Origin: Candidatus Marinacidobacterium sp.
GTDB lineage: Bacteria > Acidobacteriota > Vicinamibacteria > Marinacidobacterales > Marinacidobacteraceae
NCBI GenBank assembly: GCA_965220965.1
Contig: OZ244852.1
Coordinates: 1,376,001-1,440,000, forward strand
Direction of reading: 5' to 3'
DNA length: 64,000 nucleotides
Part shown: positions 50,716 through 64,000 of the stretch, one piece after another
How the letters are laid out: the number at the start of each line of letters is the position of its first letter
Position numbering within the stretch: the stretch's first letter is position 1
The notes under the pieces: generated by a model
Database searches by the model: none
What the model saw: only the letters and a program-made list of their open reading frames with translations
What the model was told of the DNA's origin: nothing
Program-made: the position numbers and the translations under genes

Positions 50716-54537
<3,822 letters not shown>

Positions 54538-54624: not shown

Positions 54625-56415
54625 ATGCGCCGGCCCGGCTCGTACTGCCCTCTCCCGCAGATCGGATCGTCCGGGATCCTGATCGCCGCAGCGGCGCTTT
54701 CCCTGTCTTGTGGAGAAGGGGGTTCTCCCACTGCTACGCCCACGTCGCCCGCCGCGCCGGCGACCCCGCCGGTCCTGACGCTCGAGATCCCGCCTCTCGA
54801 GCGGACGGAGTACCTCGTCGGCATGGTGGACCGGTTGCCGGACGCGGGAGCCGTGACCTGGACCTCCTCGAACGCGGATGTGCTCGAAGTTCTGCCAAAC
54901 GGCCGCTTCCTGGCGCGGGGCCCGGGCGAGGCGGAGCTGATCGCCTCCCGGGAGGGGCAGGAGGCGCGCGTCACGCTCTCCGTCACGTCGCCCTACGAGC
55001 GGACCGGAGCACCACGGTTGACCGGCCTGGACATCCTTGGCATTCCCTTCGTCCACGACGGGATCGACACCTTCGAGGGCGTCCTGATCCCCTACGGGAT
55101 GTACGACTACGAGTCCTTCCGGGAGGTTCCTGCTTCCCTGTCATCTGCCGATCCCGACGTCCTGACGGTGGATGACGACGGCGTGATTCGCGTGACCGGC
55201 GTCGGAGAGACCACGATCACAGCGACTTACCAGGGGCACTCGGCGACAACGCCGGTAGCGGTATTGCCGTGGGACGTCATCCGGGATGCGATCAGTCCCG
55301 GGCCAGGGCAGGACGGGTGCGACACGATTTGGGTCACGCCGGGAGTCGCCTTCCCTCCATATCTGGTGGAAGGCACGACGGTCCCCGCGCCGACGTTTGA
55401 GACGTGTTCGGACGGCGCGATCCGAAGAGTTCACGGCGTCCAGCTCGCCTCGTCGGATCCGGCCGTCATCCAGGTCGAACCTGACGGCTTCCTGACGGCA
55501 AGGAGTCCTGGCCGCGCCCGCATCCTCATGTCTTCGGAGCAGGGCCAGGAACAGGGGGGAGAGGCCGAGACGCCACCGATCACCGTTCTTCCCGCCTACG
55601 ACATCACAACACAGGCGCTGACCGAGCGGGCGCACCAGGATCGGCCGGACGACTTCGAGGGGCCCCAGATCCACGTTGTCTACGCGGTCCCCGAAGATGC
55701 GCCGGACCGGGGGCTCGACCTCTCGGGCGCGCTCGAGGAGTCGGTCGCGGCGATCCAGGACTGGATCCGTCAGGACATCGGTTACGAGCTGAACCTGGAC
55801 ACCCACGGCGGACGGCCGGACGTCACGTTCGTGCGACTTCTGACGCCCTACAGCGATTCCTTCTTCGACATCGCTGAAGGCCTGGATCTCGCTCTGGACC
55901 TCCAGCCAGACAAGAAGTACCTCGTGTTTGTCGCCGCGTGGGGAGCTGCGGGCATAGCGGACGACTCGGTCGCCGCCGTTTACCTGGACCGGTACAGCGG
56001 CCTAGGCCTTGTGGAGACCTTTCCGATCGAGTCGGTGTTCAGGATCACGCACCGGGAAACTGTGGCGCTCCATGAAATCCTGCACACCTTCGGAGCGGTG
56101 GCGGAGTGCGCGCCCCACGCGGACGCCAGCTTCCACGTGAACGACACGCCGGCTGACCTCATGTGGCCTTACCTCTCCGAGGATGGGTTTCGTATCGATG
56201 TTGGCCGGGACGACTACTTCGACCACCACGGGGACGACTGCCTCGACACGGCCGACAGCCCCTACTGGCGTCAGGTCACCACCGTGACAACGGACAGTTC
56301 GGCCACCCCCCGCTCTGAAGGGCCTCCAACCCGGACGGCCGCGGTCACGATGGAGGAGCGGATCCGCTCCGTGCTTCACCCCGACCCCACTTTGCGCTGC
56401 GGCCTCCCCCACTGA
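54625..56415 (+). CDS. Ig-like repeat + zincin metallopeptidase lipoprotein, paralog 1
   Basis: LSLSC lipobox; three SS(N/D)P..V Big_2-like repeats; HEILHTFGA..C....FHV..DLM; ends RCGLPH. Confidence 0.8.
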   Translation: MRRPGSYCPLPQIGSSGILIAAAALSLSCGEGGSPTATPTSPAAPATPPVLTLEIPPLERTEYLVGMVDRLPDAGAVTWTSSNADVLEVLPNGRFLARGPGEAELIASREGQEARVTLSVTSPYERTGAPRLTGLDILGIPFVHDGIDTFEGVLIPYGMYDYESFREVPASLSSADPDVLTVDDDGVIRVTGVGETTITATYQGHSATTPVAVLPWDVIRDAISPGPGQDGCDTIWVTPGVAFPPYLVEGTTVPAPTFETCSDGAIRRVHGVQLASSDPAVIQVEPDGFLTARSPGRARILMSSEQGQEQGGEAETPPITVLPAYDITTQALTERAHQDRPDDFEGPQIHVVYAVPEDAPDRGLDLSGALEESVAAIQDWIRQDIGYELNLDTHGGRPDVTFVRLLTPYSDSFFDIAEGLDLALDLQPDKKYLVFVAAWGAAGIADDSVAAVYLDRYSGLGLVETFPIESVFRITHRETVALHEILHTFGAVAECAPHADASFHVNDTPADLMWPYLSEDGFRIDVGRDDYFDHHGDDCLDTADSPYWRQVTTVTTDSSATPRSEGPPTRTAAVTMEERIRSVLHPDPTLRCGLPH

Positions 56416-56475
56416 GACCGGCGGACGAACGCAAGGCAACAGGGCCAGACCCCGCCGCCAACTCGCCGAGGCGGG

Positions 56476-56640
56476 TGCGGCGGCTCACGGTTTGCTTGCA
56501 CCGAGGCGCGGTCTCGAGAGTGGACGGCGCGCTCCGCGCGCGCTTCGAAGGAGCTCACCGGATGTCCCAACCAGGCTCTCCCAGTCCCCTCGCTCGACGC
56601 GCTTCCCGGCTCGGGGCGCTGGCCGTCACGGCGATCCTCT
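56476..56640 (+). repeat. ~165-bp direct repeat (upstream region plus signal-peptide coding), second copy at ~58485-58650
   Basis: GCGGCGGCTCACGGTTTGCTTGCACCGAGGCGCGGTCTCGAGAG...GAAGGAGCTCACCGGATGTCCCAACCAGGCTCTCCC is nearly identical before paralogs 2 and 3. Confidence 0.9.
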
Positions 56641-58421
56641 CCCTGTCCTGCGGGGATGGCGGCGGTCCGGCGCCGACCCCCGCCGCGCCGGCGACCCCGC
56701 CGGTCCTGGGCCTCGAAATCCCGCGTCCCGAGCGCACCGGGTATGTGGTCGGCATGGTGGACCGGTTGCCGGACGCGCTGGCTCGTTCGGGTGAATCGCT
56801 CCTCGGAACTCCCGGGAATGTGACCTGGACCTCCTCGAACCCGGACATCCTGGAGGTCCTGCCGAACGGCCGCTTCCTCGCGAGAGGCGCAGGCGAAGCG
56901 GAGCTGATCGCCTCCCGGGAAGGGCAGGAGGCGCGCGTCACGCTCTCCGTCACGTCGCCCTACGAGCGGACCGGGGAACCGAAGCTGAACGGCCTGGAGG
57001 TCGCGGGGTACTTCGCGCTGCATGAAGGGATCGGCGTCGTCGAGGAGGCGATCGTCGCCTACGGCGTCTACGACCATGACGTCTTTCGCGAGGTGGCGGC
57101 TTCCTTCTCCTCCCAGGATCCCGACATCGTGACCGTGGACGACAACGGCTCGATCCGCGTCAACGGCCCGGGACGGACCACCCTGACCGCGTCGTACGAG
57201 GGGTTTTCTGCGACAACTCCGGTCCGCGTTCTGACGCGGGAGGAGTTCAGGGACGGCTTTCGTTTCCCGCCCGGGGAGGAAACCCTCTGCGGCCTGTATC
57301 GGACCACTCCGACGGCCTACTTCACGACCTTCCTGGTCGAGGGCATGTCCACGCCGCTGCTCACGTACGAGCTGTGCTCGGACGGCGGCATCCGGAGGGT
57401 CCACGATGTCCGCTGGGACTCGACGGATCGGGAGGTCATCAGGGCGGAGCCCAACGGGTTCCTCACCGGCGTGAGCGCCGGCGAGGCCCACATCGCGCCG
57501 AGGCCGGCCACCTCGCCACCGCCGACTTCCGCCCCGGTCGCGGATGACACCGGCCGTCCACCGATGAGGGTCTATCCCGCCCCCGAACTCACGCCGCAGG
57601 CGCTGACCCGCCGGTCCTACCAGGATCGTCCCGACGACCTCGAGGGGCCTCAGATCCATGTGGTCTACGCCGTCCCGGAAGACGCGCCCGACCGGGCGCT
57701 CGATCTGTCGGGCGCGCTCGAAGACTCGGTCGCCGCCATTCAGGACTGGATCCGGCAGGCCATCGGCTACGAGCTGAACCTGGACACTCACGGCGGACGC
57801 CTCGATGTCACATTCGTGCGCCTGCTCACGGGATACGGCGGGGCCGACGCCTCGTGGCCCGATCTGCTCGACGGGCTGGAGCGGGCGCTTGAACTCCAGG
57901 ACGACAAGACCTACCTGGTGTTCGCGCCCGCTGGCAATGACCTCGCCGGCAAGGCGCAGGGTCCAGTGGGCGCGGTCTTTCTGGAGAGGTACTCCAGCCA
58001 GGGCTGGGGAGCCTTTCTGGACGAACTCCTCCCGCTCGAGACGCCCTTCGGGCTCGCGCGCACCGAGATCACCACCCTCCATGAAATCCTCCACACGTTC
58101 GGGGCCGTTCCGGACTGCGGTGCGAACTGGATGGACGGCAACCACGTAAGCGACTCCTCGACCGACGTGATGTGGGCCGCCGGAACGAGGGCGGGCCGCG
58201 TCCACATCGATGTCGACCGGGACGACTACTTCGGCCACGGCCGGGACGACTGCCTCGACACGGCGGACAGCCCCTACTGGCGTCAGGTCGCCACCGTGAC
58301 GACCGACGCAACGAACGTCTCCCGCACACAGGGTCCGAAACCACCCCCGGTCACGATGGAGGAGCGGATCCGGTCCCTGCTGCACCCCGACCCCACCCTC
58401 CGCTGCGGCCTCCCCCACTGA
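56562..58421 (+). CDS. Ig-like repeat + zincin lipoprotein, paralog 2
   Basis: AAGGAG RBS; LSLSC; HEILHTFGA; NHV; DVM; ends RCGLPH. Confidence 0.82.
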   Translation: MSQPGSPSPLARRASRLGALAVTAILSLSCGDGGGPAPTPAAPATPPVLGLEIPRPERTGYVVGMVDRLPDALARSGESLLGTPGNVTWTSSNPDILEVLPNGRFLARGAGEAELIASREGQEARVTLSVTSPYERTGEPKLNGLEVAGYFALHEGIGVVEEAIVAYGVYDHDVFREVAASFSSQDPDIVTVDDNGSIRVNGPGRTTLTASYEGFSATTPVRVLTREEFRDGFRFPPGEETLCGLYRTTPTAYFTTFLVEGMSTPLLTYELCSDGGIRRVHDVRWDSTDREVIRAEPNGFLTGVSAGEAHIAPRPATSPPPTSAPVADDTGRPPMRVYPAPELTPQALTRRSYQDRPDDLEGPQIHVVYAVPEDAPDRALDLSGALEDSVAAIQDWIRQAIGYELNLDTHGGRLDVTFVRLLTGYGGADASWPDLLDGLERALELQDDKTYLVFAPAGNDLAGKAQGPVGAVFLERYSSQGWGAFLDELLPLETPFGLARTEITTLHEILHTFGAVPDCGANWMDGNHVSDSSTDVMWAAGTRAGRVHIDVDRDDYFGHGRDDCLDTADSPYWRQVATVTTDATNVSRTQGPKPPPVTMEERIRSLLHPDPTLRCGLPH

Positions 58422-58571
58422 AGCCGGCGCGCGATTTGGCCGTTCCGGAGCCAGGACCCCCGCCAGGGGCGCGCCCGCCAGCGCCGCGGCGGCTCACGGT
58501 TTGCTTGCACCGAGGCGCGGTCTCGAGAGCGGACGGCGCGCTCCGCGCGCGCTGTCGAAGGAGCTCACCGG

Positions 58572-60377
58572 ATGTCCCAACCAGGCTCTCCCAGTCCCCT
58601 CGCTCGACGCGCTTCCTGGCTCGGAGCGCTGGCCGTCACCGCGATCCTCACCCTTGCGTGCGAGGACTCGGCGGGACCGCTGCCGACCCCCGCTGCGCCG
58701 ACGTCCCCACCGGCCTCCAGCTTCTACAACCCGCGCCCCGAACGAACCGACTACGTGGTCGGCATGGTCGACCGCCTGCCTGACGCCGGAGGCGTGACAT
58801 GGACCTCTTCCAACCCGGATGTCCTGGCGGTCCTGCCGGGCGGCCGCTTTCTCGCGAGAGGCGCCGGCCAGGCGGATCTGATCGGTTCCGGGGCGAGTCA
58901 GGAGACGCGCGTCACTCTGAGCGTCACCTCACCCTACGACCGGACCGGCGAGCCCCGGCTGACCGGCCTGGAGATCGCGGGCCTTGTCGACTTCCTCCTC
59001 CTGCACGAGCGAGTCGGCGTCGTCGAGGGAGCGGTGGTCGCCTACGGCGTTTACGACCAGGAGGTCTTCCGGGAAGTCGCCGCCACCCTCGAGTCACTGG
59101 ATCCGGATGTCCTGACGGTCGAAAAGGACGGAACGATCCGCGTCAATGCCGCCGGGGAGGTGACGATCACCGCGTCCTTCGGGGAGCTCCTGGTGGCCCA
59201 ACAGATCCGCGTGCAGACCTGGGAAGAGTTAAGCGCGAGCTTCTCGGGAGGCGGGGATGAAGTGGGCGCTCCCGAATGCGGCCTCCTCGCGTTCACTCCG
59301 CTGGGGTCCTCTCCAGCTCTGCTGGTCGAGGGCATGACCGCTCCGCTGCTCGCGTACGAGCTGTGTCGGACGAACGGGGCGATGCGACGGGTCCACCACT
59401 CCGACTTCGTCTCCAGCGATCCCGAGGTCGTCAGGTTCGAACCCGAGGGCCTCGTAGTCGCCGGGCGCCCCGGCGTCGCCTCCTACAGGTCCCATACCTG
59501 GGGCCCGGACGGTCCGGGATTCCCCCTCAAGGTTCTCCCCGCTTTCGAATTCACGGCGGAAGCGCTGAGCCTCCGGTCCTACCAGGACCGTCCGGACGAT
59601 TACGAAGGTCCCCAGATCCATGTCGTCTACGCCGTCCCGGAGAATGTGGCGGACCGGGGGCTGGACCTGTCCGGCAAGCTCGAAAACTCGGTCGCCGCGC
59701 TCCAGGACTGGATCCGGCAAGCCATCGGTTACGAGCTGAACCTGGACACCCACGGCGGACGCCTCGACATCACGTTCGTGCGCCTGCTGACCCCCCTGGG
59801 CGGAGAGGCGACCACCGTGTCCGGCCTGCGCGACGGGCTCGAACGGGCCCTGGGAATCCAGGAAGACAAGAAATACCTGGTGTTCGCGCCAACGCGCCTG
59901 GGCTGGCCCGGCGCGGCGCGGGACCCGATGGGCGCGGTCTTTCTCGACCCGTACCTCGGCGCTTCCCGTGGAGAGATCTTCGATCAGTTCGCTCCGCTCG
60001 AGTCGGAGTTCGGGATCACCCGAACCGAAACATCAGCGCTCCGCCAACTCCTCCACACCTTCGGGGCCGTCCCGGAATGCGCTCCGAACCGGGGGAGAGG
60101 CAACTCTGTGAACGACTCGGCCGACGATCTGATGGCGTCAGGCTCCGGGTCTCGCATCGATGTCGGCCGGGACGACTACTTCGGCCACGGCCGGGAGGAC
60201 TGCCTCGACACCGCGAACAGCCCCTACTGGCGCCAGGTCGCCAACGTCACGACGGACAGCTCGGCCGCTTCACGCGCTGAAGAAGGCCACGGCGGGACGG
60301 TCCCGATCACGTTGGAGCAGCAGATCCGCTCCCTGATGGCCAGTGACCGTTACCTACGCCACGCCCTCACTCGCTGA
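58572..60377 (+). CDS. Ig-like repeat + zincin-fold lipoprotein, paralog 3 (catalytically dead)
   Basis: LTLAC lipobox; HExxH replaced by RQLLH; third His replaced by Ser (NSVND); tail RHALTR. Confidence 0.8.
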   Translation: MSQPGSPSPLARRASWLGALAVTAILTLACEDSAGPLPTPAAPTSPPASSFYNPRPERTDYVVGMVDRLPDAGGVTWTSSNPDVLAVLPGGRFLARGAGQADLIGSGASQETRVTLSVTSPYDRTGEPRLTGLEIAGLVDFLLLHERVGVVEGAVVAYGVYDQEVFREVAATLESLDPDVLTVEKDGTIRVNAAGEVTITASFGELLVAQQIRVQTWEELSASFSGGGDEVGAPECGLLAFTPLGSSPALLVEGMTAPLLAYELCRTNGAMRRVHHSDFVSSDPEVVRFEPEGLVVAGRPGVASYRSHTWGPDGPGFPLKVLPAFEFTAEALSLRSYQDRPDDYEGPQIHVVYAVPENVADRGLDLSGKLENSVAALQDWIRQAIGYELNLDTHGGRLDITFVRLLTPLGGEATTVSGLRDGLERALGIQEDKKYLVFAPTRLGWPGAARDPMGAVFLDPYLGASRGEIFDQFAPLESEFGITRTETSALRQLLHTFGAVPECAPNRGRGNSVNDSADDLMASGSGSRIDVGRDDYFGHGREDCLDTANSPYWRQVANVTTDSSAASRAEEGHGGTVPITLEQQIRSLMASDRYLRHALTR

Positions 60378-60383
60378 GCCGCC

Positions 60384-62204
60384 GTGAACCTCCACAGCAC
60401 AGGATCCGCGACGCTCTGCCGGATCCGGCTCGCCTCCTCATTCGGCGTCCTGATGGCGGCCGCCCTCTCCCTCTCCTGCGAAGGCTCGGGGGGGACGGGC
60501 CAGCTCGTCGCCACGCCGACCTCTCCGGCGCCATCCACCCTCGAGATCGTGGCCGAGCGCACGGAGTACCTCGTCGGGATGGTGGACCGGCTGCCCGACG
60601 CGGAAGGCGCTACATGGACCTCTTCGAACCCGGACATCGTGGAAGTCCTGCCGGGCGAGCGCTTCCTCGCGAGAGGCGCGGGCGCGGCGGATCTGATCGC
60701 CTCCCGGGAAGGTCAGGAAGCGCGCGTCACGCTCTCGGTCACGTCGCCCTATGACCGAACCGGCGAACCGAGGTTGACCGGCCTGGAAGTCCTGGGCCTG
60801 CCCGTCCTCCACGACGAAATCGTCGCCTTGGAGGACGCCGTGAAGGTCTACGGCATCTACAACCATCAGACCCTTCAGGAGGTCCCCGCCGCACTGTCGT
60901 CCGCGGATCCGGATGTCCTGACGGTGGACGACGATGGAACGATCCACGTCATGGGGGTTGGCGCAACCACGGTCACGGCGTCGTACGAAGGACACGCGAC
61001 CTCAAGACGGTTCGGCGTCACAACCCGGGAGAAGTCGCGGGCGGCGCTTGTCGACAATCTCGGGGAGGGCTTCGACTGCGGCTTGGTTGCACACTTGGCT
61101 CCGTCATGGGCGGCTCGCCACATGATGCAGGGAATGACCGTGCCCTTTGTCCTTACGGAAATGTGCGTGGACGGGACGATCCGGAGGACTCGCGACGTCC
61201 GCCTTGCGTCCACGAATCCCGAGGTCATCGAAGTCGGTCCGGGCGGCTTCCTCACCGCCAAACACCCCGGCCAGGCCACCGTTGAACCACTCCAGGCGGG
61301 CATCGGGATCCTCGACCAACCGACCGGCCAGTCCGGCTTCGGAGTCTTCACGGTCCTCCCCGAGTTCGAGTTCACGCCCGAGGCGCTCAGCCAGCGGTCC
61401 TACCAGGACCGCCCCGACGACTACGAGGGTCCGCAGATCCATGTCGTCTATGCCGTGCCCGAAGACGTGGCGGACCGCGGGCTGGATCTCTCCGGCCAAC
61501 TCGAGGCCTCGTTCGCGTCGGTCCAGAACTGGATCTGGCAGGCGATCGGCTACCAGCTCAACCTGGACACCTACGGCGGGCGGCCGGACATCACCTTCGT
61601 CCGCATGCTGACTCCCCATGGAAGTGTTGAGGATTCCTTCCAGGACCTGCTCGACGGGCTGGACCGGGCGATGGGGCTCCAGAGGGACAAGAAGTACCTC
61701 GTCTTTGCTCCCGTGTGGTCCTATCTTCTCGGCAAGGCGAGCGTGCAGGAAGGCGTGGGCGCGGTCTATCTGGACAGACACATGAGTATGGCCTGGGGCG
61801 CCCACCTGGACAATTTCTTCCCAGTCGAATCGGAGTTCGACATCACTGGCGGTGAAAGGACGGCGCTCCACGAACTCCTCCACACGTTCGGCGCCGTCGC
61901 CGGGTGCGCACCCAACTTCGACGGCTCCTCCCACGTAGACGACGCGCCGGACGACGTGATGTGGGCAGGTTCGGGTTTCCGCATCGACGTCGGTCGGGAT
62001 GACTACTTCGGCCATGGGCGGGACGACTGCCTCGACACCGCCGACAGCCCTTTCTGGCGTCAGGTCGCCACCCTCACGACCCACGCCTCGGCCACACGTC
62101 GCATCAACAGCCCGGAAGACAAAAGGGCCATAGCCAATATGGAGGCGCAAATCCTCTCCCTGTTCGGGCCCGACCCTTATCTGCGCTGCGCTCTCCCCCA
62201 CTGA
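60384..62204 (+). CDS. Ig-like repeat + zincin lipoprotein, paralog 4
   Basis: LSLSC; HELLHTFGA; SHV; DVM; ends RCALPH. Confidence 0.82.
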   Translation: MNLHSTGSATLCRIRLASSFGVLMAAALSLSCEGSGGTGQLVATPTSPAPSTLEIVAERTEYLVGMVDRLPDAEGATWTSSNPDIVEVLPGERFLARGAGAADLIASREGQEARVTLSVTSPYDRTGEPRLTGLEVLGLPVLHDEIVALEDAVKVYGIYNHQTLQEVPAALSSADPDVLTVDDDGTIHVMGVGATTVTASYEGHATSRRFGVTTREKSRAALVDNLGEGFDCGLVAHLAPSWAARHMMQGMTVPFVLTEMCVDGTIRRTRDVRLASTNPEVIEVGPGGFLTAKHPGQATVEPLQAGIGILDQPTGQSGFGVFTVLPEFEFTPEALSQRSYQDRPDDYEGPQIHVVYAVPEDVADRGLDLSGQLEASFASVQNWIWQAIGYQLNLDTYGGRPDITFVRMLTPHGSVEDSFQDLLDGLDRAMGLQRDKKYLVFAPVWSYLLGKASVQEGVGAVYLDRHMSMAWGAHLDNFFPVESEFDITGGERTALHELLHTFGAVAGCAPNFDGSSHVDDAPDDVMWAGSGFRIDVGRDDYFGHGRDDCLDTADSPFWRQVATLTTHASATRRINSPEDKRAIANMEAQILSLFGPDPYLRCALPH

Positions 62205-62210
62205 GCCGCC

Positions 62211-64000
62211 GTGAACCCCCAGAGCTCAGGGTCTGTGATGCTCCGCCGGACCCGGCTGGCCTCCTCACTCGGCGTCCTGATGGCGGCCGCCCTCTCCCTC
62301 TCCTGCGAAGGCTCGGGGGGAACGGGCCAGCTCGTCGCCACCCCGACATCTCCGGCGCCATCCACCCTCGAGATCGTGGCCGAGCGCACGGAGTACCTCG
62401 TCGGGATGGTCGACCGCCTGCCCCAGGTCATCGACCGATCCTCGGAGTACCCGACCAATACGTGGCCGGAGTGGGGATCGATGAACCCCGACATCGTGGA
62501 GATCCTGCCGAACGGCCGGTTCCTGGCGAGGGGTCCCGGCTCGGTGGACTTGATCGCCACCTCCCCTTACCCAGACCAGCAGGCCCGCATCACGCTGGAG
62601 GTCACGTCACCCTACGAACGAACCGGGGAACCAAGGCTGACCGCCGTGGAAATCCTGGGCCCACCCGTCATTCACGACAGGCTCGGCGCCTTCGAGGACG
62701 CCGTGGTCGCCTACGGCATTCGCCACGATCAGACGCTCCGGGAGGTCGCCGCCACGCTCTCGTCGGCGGATCCCGACATCCTGACGGTGGACAACGATGG
62801 AACGATCCACGTCACCGGCGCCGGCGAGACCACTATCAGCGCGTCCTACGAAGGCCACTCGATGACAACGCCGATCGTGGTGTTGACCTGGGAGCAATTC
62901 AACGAACCCTTCCCGCGCATCTACGGGGAACGACAGGACATCGCCTGCAGCCCGGTCCTCTGGACGCCGAATGGATCGACTCCAACTCTTCTGCTCGAAG
63001 GCGTGACCGTCCCGTTGCTCGTGTTCGAGGTATGCCCGGACGGCGCGATGCGCCGGATCCACGATGCCCGTCTCGTCTCCTCGGACCCGGAGATCGTCGA
63101 GGTCGGGCCGGGCGGACTCGTCACCGCCAGGAGGTCAGGACGCGCCGCGCTCAGATACGAGCCGCCCGCGGCGTCGGCCCCGGGCGGCGCCGCAGCGATC
63201 ACGGTCCTTCCCGCGTTCAACGTGACGGCCGAGACGCTCGGTCGCCGGTCGTACCAGGATCGTCCCGACGACTACGAGGGACCCCAGATTCATCTGGTCT
63301 ACGCGGTCCCCGAGGACGTACCGGACCGGGGCCTGGATCTTTCCGGAGAGATCGAGGACTCGGTCGCGGTCGTGCAGCACTGGATCCGGCAGGCCATCGG
63401 CTACCAGCTCAACCTGGACACCTACGGCGGACGGCCGGATGTCAGCTTCGTCCGCCTTCTGACTCCCCTCTCCGGAACTCAGGATTCGTTTGCCGACCTG
63501 CTGGATGGGCTGGACCTGGCTCTGGACCTCCAGCAGAACAAGAAATACCTCGTGTTCACACCGGGGCTGAACTACGCCGGCCGGGCCTCGCGGCTGGTGA
63601 GCGCGGTTTTCCTCGACCGGTACGTGGGCGCCACCTGGGGGGACTTCGTGGACCATCGCCTCCCACGCGACCTGAAGTTCGGCGTCACCAGCACCGAGAT
63701 CGTGGCGCTCCATGAGCTTTTTCACACGTTCGGCGCCGCCGCCGAGTGCGCCCCCAACTTCGAGGCCTATCACGTCAACGACACCCTCGACGATGTGATG
63801 ACGCGGGGACAACAGATCGATTTTGGGAGGGACGACTACTTCGGCCACGGGCGAGCTGACTGCACGGACACCGCGAACAGCCCCTACTGGCGGCGCGTCA
63901 CCAGCGTCGCGACAGACGCCGCGGCAACCCCCCGCTCCGAACGCCCCGACCAGACGGCCCCGGTCACGATGGAGGAGCAGCTCCGCTCCCTGTTTGTCCC
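62211..64000 (+). CDS. Ig-like repeat + zincin lipoprotein, paralog 5 (runs off window end; absent from ORF track)
   Basis: GTG start homologous to 60384; LSLSC; in-frame HELFHTFGA at 63711; YHVND; ends ...PVTMEEQLRSLFV at the edge. Confidence 0.8.
   Translation, partial: MNPQSSGSVMLRRTRLASSLGVLMAAALSLSCEGSGGTGQLVATPTSPAPSTLEIVAERTEYLVGMVDRLPQVIDRSSEYPTNTWPEWGSMNPDIVEILPNGRFLARGPGSVDLIATSPYPDQQARITLEVTSPYERTGEPRLTAVEILGPPVIHDRLGAFEDAVVAYGIRHDQTLREVAATLSSADPDILTVDNDGTIHVTGAGETTISASYEGHSMTTPIVVLTWEQFNEPFPRIYGERQDIACSPVLWTPNGSTPTLLLEGVTVPLLVFEVCPDGAMRRIHDARLVSSDPEIVEVGPGGLVTARRSGRAALRYEPPAASAPGGAAAITVLPAFNVTAETLGRRSYQDRPDDYEGPQIHLVYAVPEDVPDRGLDLSGEIEDSVAVVQHWIRQAIGYQLNLDTYGGRPDVSFVRLLTPLSGTQDSFADLLDGLDLALDLQQNKKYLVFTPGLNYAGRASRLVSAVFLDRYVGATWGDFVDHRLPRDLKFGVTSTEIVALHELFHTFGAAAECAPNFEAYHVNDTLDDVMTRGQQIDFGRDDYFGHGRADCTDTANSPYWRRVTSVATDAAATPRSERPDQTAPVTMEEQLRSLFV

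Follow-up and report, generated by a model that had tools for sequence, protein, structure and literature searches.

Five tandem genes and the layout of their products

The proteins considered here are encoded in a stretch of 64,000 nucleotides (nt) from Candidatus Marinacidobacterium sp. (assembly GCA_965220965.1, contig OZ244852.1, positions 1,376,001-1,440,000), which is referred to throughout as the window. Translation of the open reading frames (ORFs) of the window gives five tandem paralogs, P1 to P5, all on the + strand, with P1 sharing 54-62% identity with the others. Each of the products is laid out in the same manner, with a lipoprotein signal, about 300 residues that contain matches to Big_2/Ig-like domains, a domain of about 220 residues and finally a tail of 43-45 residues. 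It is the tail that is the main subject here, as in four of the five copies it carries a cysteine that may cap the zinc site of the preceding domain; whether this cap is a switchable one, and thus an analogue of the cysteine switch, is a proposition for which the chances are about even. Cysteine-switch latency is itself a textbook mechanism.

P1 (54625-56415, +) encodes a protein of 596 amino acids (aa) with its lipobox Cys29 at 54709-54711. The catalytic domain (about 55618-56277), for which a metzincin fold is predicted, follows the Big_2/Ig-like region and precedes the tail, and its zinc site (56071-56136) runs from HEILH (56071-56085) through a Gly and a Cys to His504 (56134-56136) within HVND. 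The tail (56278-56412) comprises a T/S/P-rich linker, a putative helix with the sequence MEERIRSVL and the ending PDPTLRCGLPH, with Cys592 at 56398-56400. The ORF of P2 (56475-58421, +) opens with a GTG at 56475, yet alignment with the N-terminus of P3 makes an ATG at 56562 the likely true start; HEILH is found at 58080-58094, His557 at 58143-58145 and the tail Cys644 at 58404-58406, within the ending DPTLRCGLPH. P3 (58572-60377, +) is a degenerate copy with an intact ORF, in which RQLLH lies at 60042-60056, Ser512 (60105-60107) replaces the third His and His597 (60360-60362) replaces the tail Cys, the protein ending in SDRYLRHALTR. P4 (60384-62204, +) carries HELLH at 61869-61883, His517 at 61932-61934 and Cys602 at 62187-62189 and ends in DPYLRCALPH, and P5 (62211-64031, +) carries HELFH at 63711-63725 and His521 at 63771-63773 and ends in DPTLRCGVPH. 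The last 31 nt of P5 lie beyond the end of the window and its terminus was taken from the genome sequence.

All five proteins begin with a hydrophobic stretch followed by L-(S/T)-L-(S/A)-C, and their orthologs have (L/A)-(A/S)-(S/A)-C-G-G-G at the same place. A lipobox is defined by a signal peptide that ends in an invariant Cys, and P1-P5 fit this pattern, as would be expected of surface proteins that are lipid-anchored at the N-terminus.

The zinc site and fold of the catalytic domain

The zinc-helix motif HE(I/L)(L/F)HTFG is found in P1, P2, P4 and P5. In P3 the HExxH is replaced by RQLLH and HVxD has become SVND, with two presumed zinc His and the catalytic Glu gone. The sequence-only reading of the window had singled out paralog 3 as the only copy without zinc ligands and with the ending LRHALTR, and this is borne out, both RQLLH and the Ser in place of the HVxD His being seen. 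Across 293 non-redundant members of the family the site is highly conserved, the first His (H1) being present in 290, the Glu in 266 (with Asp in 20), the second His (H2) in 292 and the Gly in 289, whilst a Cys five residues past the Gly is found in 262, a His about 17 residues past H2, within HVxD, in 289, and a Met nine residues past this distal His in 279, with Leu in 14 (a candidate, by sequence position only, for the Met-turn of metzincins). The HDxxH variant that accounts for the 20 Asp is mostly found where an N-terminal catalytic domain is joined to C-terminal domains of the InlB B-repeat type; HDxxH is unusual among zinc peptidases.

The canonical position of the third metzincin ligand (G-x-x-H/D) is occupied by Ala or Val (HTFGAVA), and the HExxHxxGxxH/D pattern is thus absent. 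As P3 has lost the distal His along with H1, it is the distal His that is read as the putative third zinc ligand, moved from the usual place by some 13 inserted residues, among them the invariant Cys. A comparable insertion before the third ligand is known for leishmanolysin.

The catalytic domain is not readily recognised by its sequence. At E<=1 none of the five proteins has a match to a peptidase family in this domain, either in Pfam-A (in a library without PF26918) or in NCBIfam, and Peptidase_M10 is among the families unmatched by any of them. A sequence search with P1 against the chains of the PDB found no match to the catalytic domain, and in a profile search against the PDB the only one was ADAM17, at an E of about 0.1, the significant matches being Ig-like (Big_2) ones that stem from full-length rows. 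The family is nevertheless large, with 1429 representatives at 50% identity at E<=1e-3 (150 of which were listed) and 747 at E<=1e-10, and its named carriers are metagenome-assembled genomes of Acidobacteriota (Vicinamibacteria, 'Ca. Marinacidobacterium'), Actinomycetota (Gaiellaceae, Thermoleophilia), Chloroflexota, Gemmatimonadota and others. Among the matches listed, P0001, P0007 and five others carry the Pfam annotation PF26918; two of these carriers belong to the window array and share its long N-terminal region, and four others are 393-399 aa long, lengths that do not place PF26918 within the protein.

Structure prediction is far more informative. A 276-aa construct of P1 was modelled by AlphaFold2 with a mean predicted local distance difference test (pLDDT) of 83.5, with 174 residues at >=90, and Foldseek matched it with a probability of 1.00 to archaemetzincin, ADAMTS4 and a snake-venom metalloproteinase. 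This model and that of a short-tail ortholog, described below, were compared with 48,161 chains by VIA-align, which returned 24 chains at Z>=8 for each model, with top Z of 12.9 and 12.8. The recognised chains among the 24 are metzincins, and one further chain, 6o38, has a title that names no more than a chaperone-substrate complex. The glycopeptidases Amuc_1438 and OgpA (8df2, 6z2o) came top with Z of 12.9 and 12.4, archaemetzincin (2x7m) followed at 10.6-11.5 and ADAM17 (TACE) and 1dth at 11.1-11.6 (TACE itself at 11.3), with mirolysin and ulilysin at 8.6-9.4 and the matrix metalloproteinases (MMPs) at only 5-6. In the ESM Atlas all close clusters are unnamed, the nearest that bear a Pfam domain or a name being Reprolysin-like, at 0.90-0.91. 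On these predicted models the catalytic domain has a metzincin fold, which is marked by a sheet of five strands, an active-site helix and an irregular lower subdomain, and belongs to a family that has no name in domain libraries.

The C-terminal tail and the clade that carries it

The tails of P1, P2, P4 and P5 end in LRC(G/A)(L/V)PH and that of P3 in LRHALTR, so the tail Cys is present in 4/4 copies with an intact HExxH and missing from the sole degenerate copy. The sequence-only reading had listed LRCGLPH, LRCGLPH and LRCALPH for paralogs 1, 2 and 4; the translations agree, and P5 adds a fourth intact copy. It had also described a low-complexity linker and an amphipathic MEERIRS-type helix ahead of the motif. 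The linker is indeed rich in Thr, Ser, Pro and Ala, whereas the helix is predicted (residues 256-264 of the P1 construct) with a pLDDT of only about 55.

The tail is not restricted to the window. In a FastTree tree of the 293 domains the window paralogs group with nearly all proteins that have a short Cys tail in a clade of 85 leaves (support 0.81), which was enlarged to 177 non-redundant members with 101 proteins from a profile search, and 154 of the 177 have the motif with its Cys. From 67 non-redundant tails the consensus is (E/R)-V-R-(I/L)-P-x-G-D-W-P-(L/I/V/F)-R-C-(G/E/A)-(L/V)-(E)-H-COOH; counting back from the Cys, Arg (-1) is found in 63 tails, a hydrophobic residue (-2) in all 67, Pro (-3) in 61, Trp (-4) in 49 and Asp (-5) in 58. 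The C-terminal residue is His in 47 of the 67, and in 50 there are 3-4 residues past the Cys. The Cys follows the end of the domain by 18-27 residues in 63 tails; in the window paralogs, with their extra helix, the distance is 38-40. The Cys motif recurs in homologs with an overall identity of only 35-45%, and the pattern is therefore beyond what chance would be expected to leave.

Relatives outside the clade end directly after the domain, run into other domains or end in ...DPLP...PPGW. The last of these endings, (L/M)DPLP...(A/V)xPPGW(P), is free of Cys, comes right after the domain and is found in other phyla (P0134, P0139, P0174, P0182, P0190, P0223 and loci L099 and L103).

The order of the tail was judged from the pLDDT and secondary-structure assignment of the AlphaFold2 models. 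For a short-tail ortholog of 261 aa (L008:1314-2096), modelled from an alignment of 76 rows, the mean pLDDT is 93.9 and successive blocks of the tail are at 91, 82 and 80, with a short turn at Glu-Gly-Asp and Cys258-Gly-Val assigned as beta strand or bridge. The tail of the ortholog is thus predicted to be ordered and to pack on the domain. A prediction of the complex between the P1 domain (10-232), the P1 tail (233-276) and Zn gave 0.05 and 0.02, with the mark at 0.32, and counts neither way.

Pairing of the tail cysteine

Whether the tail Cys could have a disulfide partner was judged from the number of cysteines in each protein. The count was made over 84 clade members, P0005 being left out as it is ended by the window end. 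In 83 of the 84 the cysteines of the catalytic domain number 2, 4 or 6, which is always even. One pair, C175/C219 in the numbering of the construct, is invariant in alignment A2, and the second pair is present or absent jointly. The tail has exactly one Cys in 67 members, with tails of <=60 residues, and none in 13, the other 4 members having long C-terminal regions. In P1 the Ig-like N-terminal region holds a Cys pair of its own and the lipobox Cys is acylated. Since the Cys of the domain are even in number and that of the tail is single, the tail thiol is left with no partner within the molecule. A structural disulfide elsewhere, which the sequence-only reading had named as the finding that would count against its idea, is disfavoured by this parity and was rejected as a role for the tail Cys.

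Retention and loss of the cysteine

Within the clade of 177, 141 members combine three intact His and the Glu with the motif and its Cys, and a further 4 with an intact site have other long C-termini. A single member keeps the three His with Asp in place of Glu, and is without the tail. In 13 members the three His are kept and the Glu has given way to Q, G, A or V (P0096, P0014, P0288, P0292, P0298, P0300, P0303, P0308, P0310, P0319 and loci L031, L047 and L076), and the Cys is kept in 13/13. Eight of the 13 fall in one subclade, marked by a Thr for the Asp of HVxD and by a Pro/Glu-rich extension past the Cys, which may be a lineage of pseudo-enzymes. Counted by Fitch parsimony over the tree of the clade, with P3 included, the Glu state has changed 10 times. 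Loss of zinc ligands is found in only one member, P3, and it is here that the Cys has become a His.

As far as the alignments go, the Cys follows the zinc ligands and not catalytic competence. That the Cys should track the ligands rather than the Glu is what direct ligation of the zinc predicts. At the same time, because Glu-less members keep the Cys, the tail must do more than keep an active protease latent.

In P3 the change goes beyond a single residue. In its last 11 residues 5 of 8 positions that are invariant among its siblings have changed, compared with 29 of 219 in the rest of the protein (one-sided Fisher test, p=0.0023), and when the siblings were tested likewise the changed tail positions were 0/8, 0/8, 2/10 and 1/9. 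Over the whole protein P3 has changed at 34 of 227 sibling-invariant positions (15%), and the siblings at 13-17%. P3 would thus seem to be still maintained as a protein, having shed its zinc site and tail motif together. Mutual information (with average product correction) between tail and domain columns was also calculated, from 154 sequences with an effective number of 46; the top pairs mirror how the window paralogs separate from all other members, and it was left unused as it was judged to be phylogenetic signal.

A proposed C-terminal cap and its alternatives

What might the tail do? The reading that is preferred here is that the last 15-45 residues would form an intramolecular cap that folds back on the catalytic domain, with the segment (I/L)PxGDWP(L/I/V/F)RC(G/E/A)(L/V)(E)H docking in the active-site cleft, where the unpaired tail Cys would become the fourth ligand of the catalytic zinc and oust the catalytic water. 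Activity would then arise on cleavage of the tail, on oxidation of the thiol or on its displacement. Docking in the cleft, contact of the Cys with zinc and latency are all three what we infer. The comparative evidence for an unpaired Cys cap linked to the zinc is good on the sequences compared, and that the tail Cys touches the catalytic zinc at all, be it in a switchable or in a permanent manner, is probable. For the narrower proposal of a switchable C-terminal zinc cap, analogous to the cysteine switch, the balance is even.

A number of observations weigh against such a cap. In three members with an intact site the Cys is replaced (Ser in P0013 and P0301, Asn in P0095 within a degenerate motif), and in 14 more the site is intact and the tail is of <=15 residues and without the motif. 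The latter include locus L017 (G430:C2; P0322), where HELFH is intact, a TAG stop lies 14 residues past the domain and no motif is readable downstream of the stop. The three replacements together with this truncated ortholog would make the cap dispensable in some lineages. The covariation of the tail Cys with HExxH that the sequence-only reading had proposed as a check is accordingly mixed, being supported by the loss of ligands in P3 and by the Cys kept in all 13 Glu-less members with three His, and contradicted by the three Cys losses at an intact site. Its caution that the joint loss of Cys and zinc site rests on one copy still applies, as among 177 clade members it remains a single lineage. 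Retention of the Cys in 13 members that are presumably inactive is unexpected if latency were the sole role of the tail. The motif itself is looser than the RCG of the window suggests, with Gly after the Cys in 30 of the 67 tails, Glu in 20 and Ala in 12, and in the AlphaFold2 model of P1 the tail has a pLDDT of only 45-60.

The alternative that fares best, if still an unlikely one, is that the tail packs away from the zinc and that its thiol serves in an intermolecular disulfide, in a second metal site together with the C-terminal His (C-x2-3-H-COOH) or in redox sensing. An unpaired Cys is just what any of these would need, its retention in 13/13 members whatever the state of the Glu fits a role that is independent of catalysis, and for a second metal site there is the frequent terminal His (47/67 tails), to which the invariant His H23 and H218 (alignment A4) could contribute. 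These two His, however, are also found in relatives that have no tail and are thus not specific to it, and many Cys-bearing members have lost the terminal His or have it buried under extensions. It is also difficult to see on this alternative why decay of the tail motif is specific to P3, the copy that has no zinc ligands. In addition, exported proteins do not usually expose a free thiol other than one that is bound to metal.

Retention of the Cys without the Glu can be accommodated in another way, by a C-terminal cysteine switch whose closed state, Zn(His)3-Cys, serves some function in itself and is hence kept in the Glu-less lineages. The tail would then be a latch on a surface lipoprotein, responsive to thiols, redox state or metal, that unmasks a protease in some members or, in those without Glu, a substrate-binding cleft, and the whole would be a regulated capture-or-cleave module rather than a plain zymogen. 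This extension of the switch is speculative and we regard it as rather doubtful.

More doubtful again is that the Cys is a permanent ligand in a structural Zn(His)3Cys site and that at least part of the clade consists of non-catalytic binding or scaffold modules. The replacement of Glu in 13/177, in several lineages and with H, H, H and Cys all kept, would fit this well, as would the clustering of these cases in the subclade with Thr for the Asp of HVxD and the Pro/Glu extension. Against it, the Glu is intact in 162/177 members of the clade and in 266/293 of the wider family, which points to catalysis as the norm, and relatives without a tail hold the same site.

The remaining two alternatives are both very improbable. 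A conserved Cys-bearing C-terminal motif on exported proteases recalls the sorting or processing signals of the MYXO-CTERM or JDVT-CTERM type, which are recognised by a dedicated membrane protease and consist of a signature motif, then a transmembrane helix, then a basic cluster; here only 3-4 residues follow the Cys in 50/67 tails, the longer extensions are Pro/Glu-rich with no hydrophobic helix and no basic cluster, NCBIfam has no match in the tail region of any of the five proteins at E<=1, an N-terminal lipoprotein anchor is already present and a CPBP-type gene was not seen among the scanned neighbours. The sorting signal was rejected on the lack of a hydrophobic segment after the Cys. Just as improbable is that the likeness is meaningless, with the tail kept for folding only and the change in P3 a coincidence: zinc ligands are lost in one lineage only and the phylogenetic structure of the data inflates apparent conservation, but the motif is kept at 35-45% overall identity, the single-Cys parity is clade-wide and the tail holds a disproportionate share of the changes in P3 (p=0.0023).

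Distribution and genomic neighbourhood

The gene is a consistent feature of its own taxonomic family, being found in 27/27 other genomes in 1-4 copies, and is found in 0/27 genomes of the other two families of the order; in a phylum-wide sample 2/401 genomes carry it, that of the window (G000) included. The complete orthologs that were read from the 27 family genomes all have the Cys tail, save one that is ended by a TAG stop. A five-gene array with the long N-terminal region occurs only in this genome among those compared.

A sixth paralog lies on the same contig about 630 kb upstream (locus L007, G000:C1 about 802930-804090). It is 38-42% identical to the array copies in the catalytic domain, carries a single Ig-like domain and terminates, after a short tail, in ...PPADRPFLCDAH. 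As it is closer to the single-copy orthologs of related genomes than the array copies are, it is probably the ancestral copy.

Within the array the intergenic gaps are uneven, with 6 nt between P3 and P4 and 6 nt between P4 and P5, and gaps of about 146-150 nt with similar upstream sequence ahead of P2 (56415-56562) and P3 (58421-58572). The signal peptides of P2 and P3 are near-identical (MSQPGSPSPLARRAS...), and P4 and P5 have one difference in a stretch of approximately 55 residues that runs through the signal peptide and the mature N-terminus up to the first Ig-like domain. The likeness of P4 and P5, along with the pattern of spacing, suggests recent duplication or gene conversion inside the array. 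Tandem pairs of short-tail copies within 4 kb are also found in at least three other genomes of the family (L021, L028, L054), and local duplication of this gene therefore appears to be recurrent.

Upstream of the array and divergent from it is a gene for a GH2 beta-galactosidase of 1251 aa with a C-terminal F5/8 type C (discoidin) domain (50716-54471, -). Given the likeness of the protease fold to that of mucin-type O-glycopeptidases (OgpA, Amuc_1438), degradation of glycoproteins could be a theme shared with this neighbour, although this is speculation. Downstream of the array are genes for a DUF885 protein, an amidohydrolase and a multicopper oxidase with CopB, and a Cas gene; the multicopper oxidase and CopB-like gene, followed by Cas_GSU0053, lie 8-12 kb past the window end (L115, G000:C1:1440001-1452000). 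A partner in an operon was sought among the GH2 beta-galactosidase, DUF819, FAA hydrolase, penicillin amidase, DUF885, amidohydrolase, multicopper oxidase/CopB and Cas genes, and none of these suggests an activator or inhibitor.

Comparison with known systems

What is new is the combination of a Cys motif at the very C-terminus, a lipoprotein and a metzincin family that is unnamed in domain libraries. The known cysteine switches, in the sources cited here, lie in N-terminal pro-segments (MMPs, ADAMs, pappalysins) or in an internal loop (CapP). In the literature searched, with most subscription journals outside its coverage, neither the phrase 'C-terminal cysteine switch' nor the name 'Marinacidobacterium' was matched. 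If the preferred reading of a switchable zinc cap is true, the mechanism of the cysteine switch has re-arisen from the opposite end of the chain in a metzincin family without a Pfam entry, and a protein found throughout one acidobacterial family (27/27 genomes) gains both a testable regulatory model and a name. Nature has also provided a panel, with four intact copies, one without ligands and Cys, members in which the Glu is gone and the Cys stays, Cys-to-Ser variants and an ortholog that is cut short.

The closest likeness in structure is to OgpA, Amuc_1438, ADAM17, adamalysin II and archaemetzincin, the best matches of both models with 155-187 residues aligned, although the identity is only 12-18% and the putative third ligand His is here displaced by an insertion. 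The proposed inhibition of a peptidase by its own C-terminal segment has a parallel in the minigluzincins proabylysin and projannalysin, where the segment sits in the cleft; these differ in having a gluzincin fold and a carboxylate as ligand rather than a cysteine.

A C-terminal block is also described for CLCA1, a metzincin-type domain that has no prodomain and whose active site is covered by an inhibitory loop on its C-terminal side (bioRxiv 10.1101/2025.10.18.683246). Here too the active site would be blocked by a segment C-terminal to the domain, but CLCA1 is eukaryotic, its loop is a substrate-like autocleavage loop in a larger domain, and the available part of that source describes no cysteine ligand. 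In CapP, the CBASS-associated peptidase, a conserved Cys in an internal 'cysteine switch loop' is described as completing the coordination of zinc and keeping the enzyme off (PMC13228613). It is a bacterial zinc peptidase whose Cys lies outside any N-terminal prodomain and does not occur in all homologs, which may be compared with the restriction to one clade seen here; it differs in being cytoplasmic, in its IrrE-type fold, in the internal position of the loop and in a trigger that is single-stranded DNA.

The classical case is that of the MMPs, where the Cys of PRCGxPD in an N-terminal prodomain of 70-90 residues binds the zinc (PMC6949598). As in the MMP and ADAM switch, the present proteins have an unpaired Cys that belongs to a short conserved motif with an R-C-(G) core and lies outside the mature metzincin-fold domain, and the role proposed for it is the same, that of a fourth zinc ligand which would hold the enzyme closed. 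The differences are clear, as the motif is at the extreme C-terminus, 18-40 residues past the domain, and not in an N-terminal prodomain, the Pro is at -3 here compared with -2 in PRCGxPD, and the Cys is followed by G, E or A. What lies N-terminal to the catalytic domain is the lipoprotein signal and the Ig-like domains, a PRCGxPD prodomain is not found there, and the only Cys motif is the C-terminal P-Phi-R-C. The likeness to a cysteine switch that was drawn by the sequence-only reading therefore holds as analogy or convergence and is not homology, and its description of the switch as 'relocated' is misleading, since the domain is not a matrixin, as judged by the unmatched Peptidase_M10, the fold Z of only 5-6 to MMPs and the different register of the Pro.

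A further comparison is with promirolysin, whose N-terminal segment of 34 residues inserts Arg21 into the S1' pocket and blocks the zinc with Cys23, part of a conserved Cys-Gly motif (PMC6949598). Promirolysin and the unicellular pappalysins are likewise bacterial metzincins in which a short segment, and not a prodomain with a fold of its own, plugs the site and an Arg lies near the Cys. The segment of promirolysin is N-terminal and has R-x-C-G rather than the R-C seen here, and homology in sequence is absent. With an Arg directly before the Cys here, and a Gly after it in 30/67 tails, promirolysin nonetheless serves as a precedent from the same class of fold.

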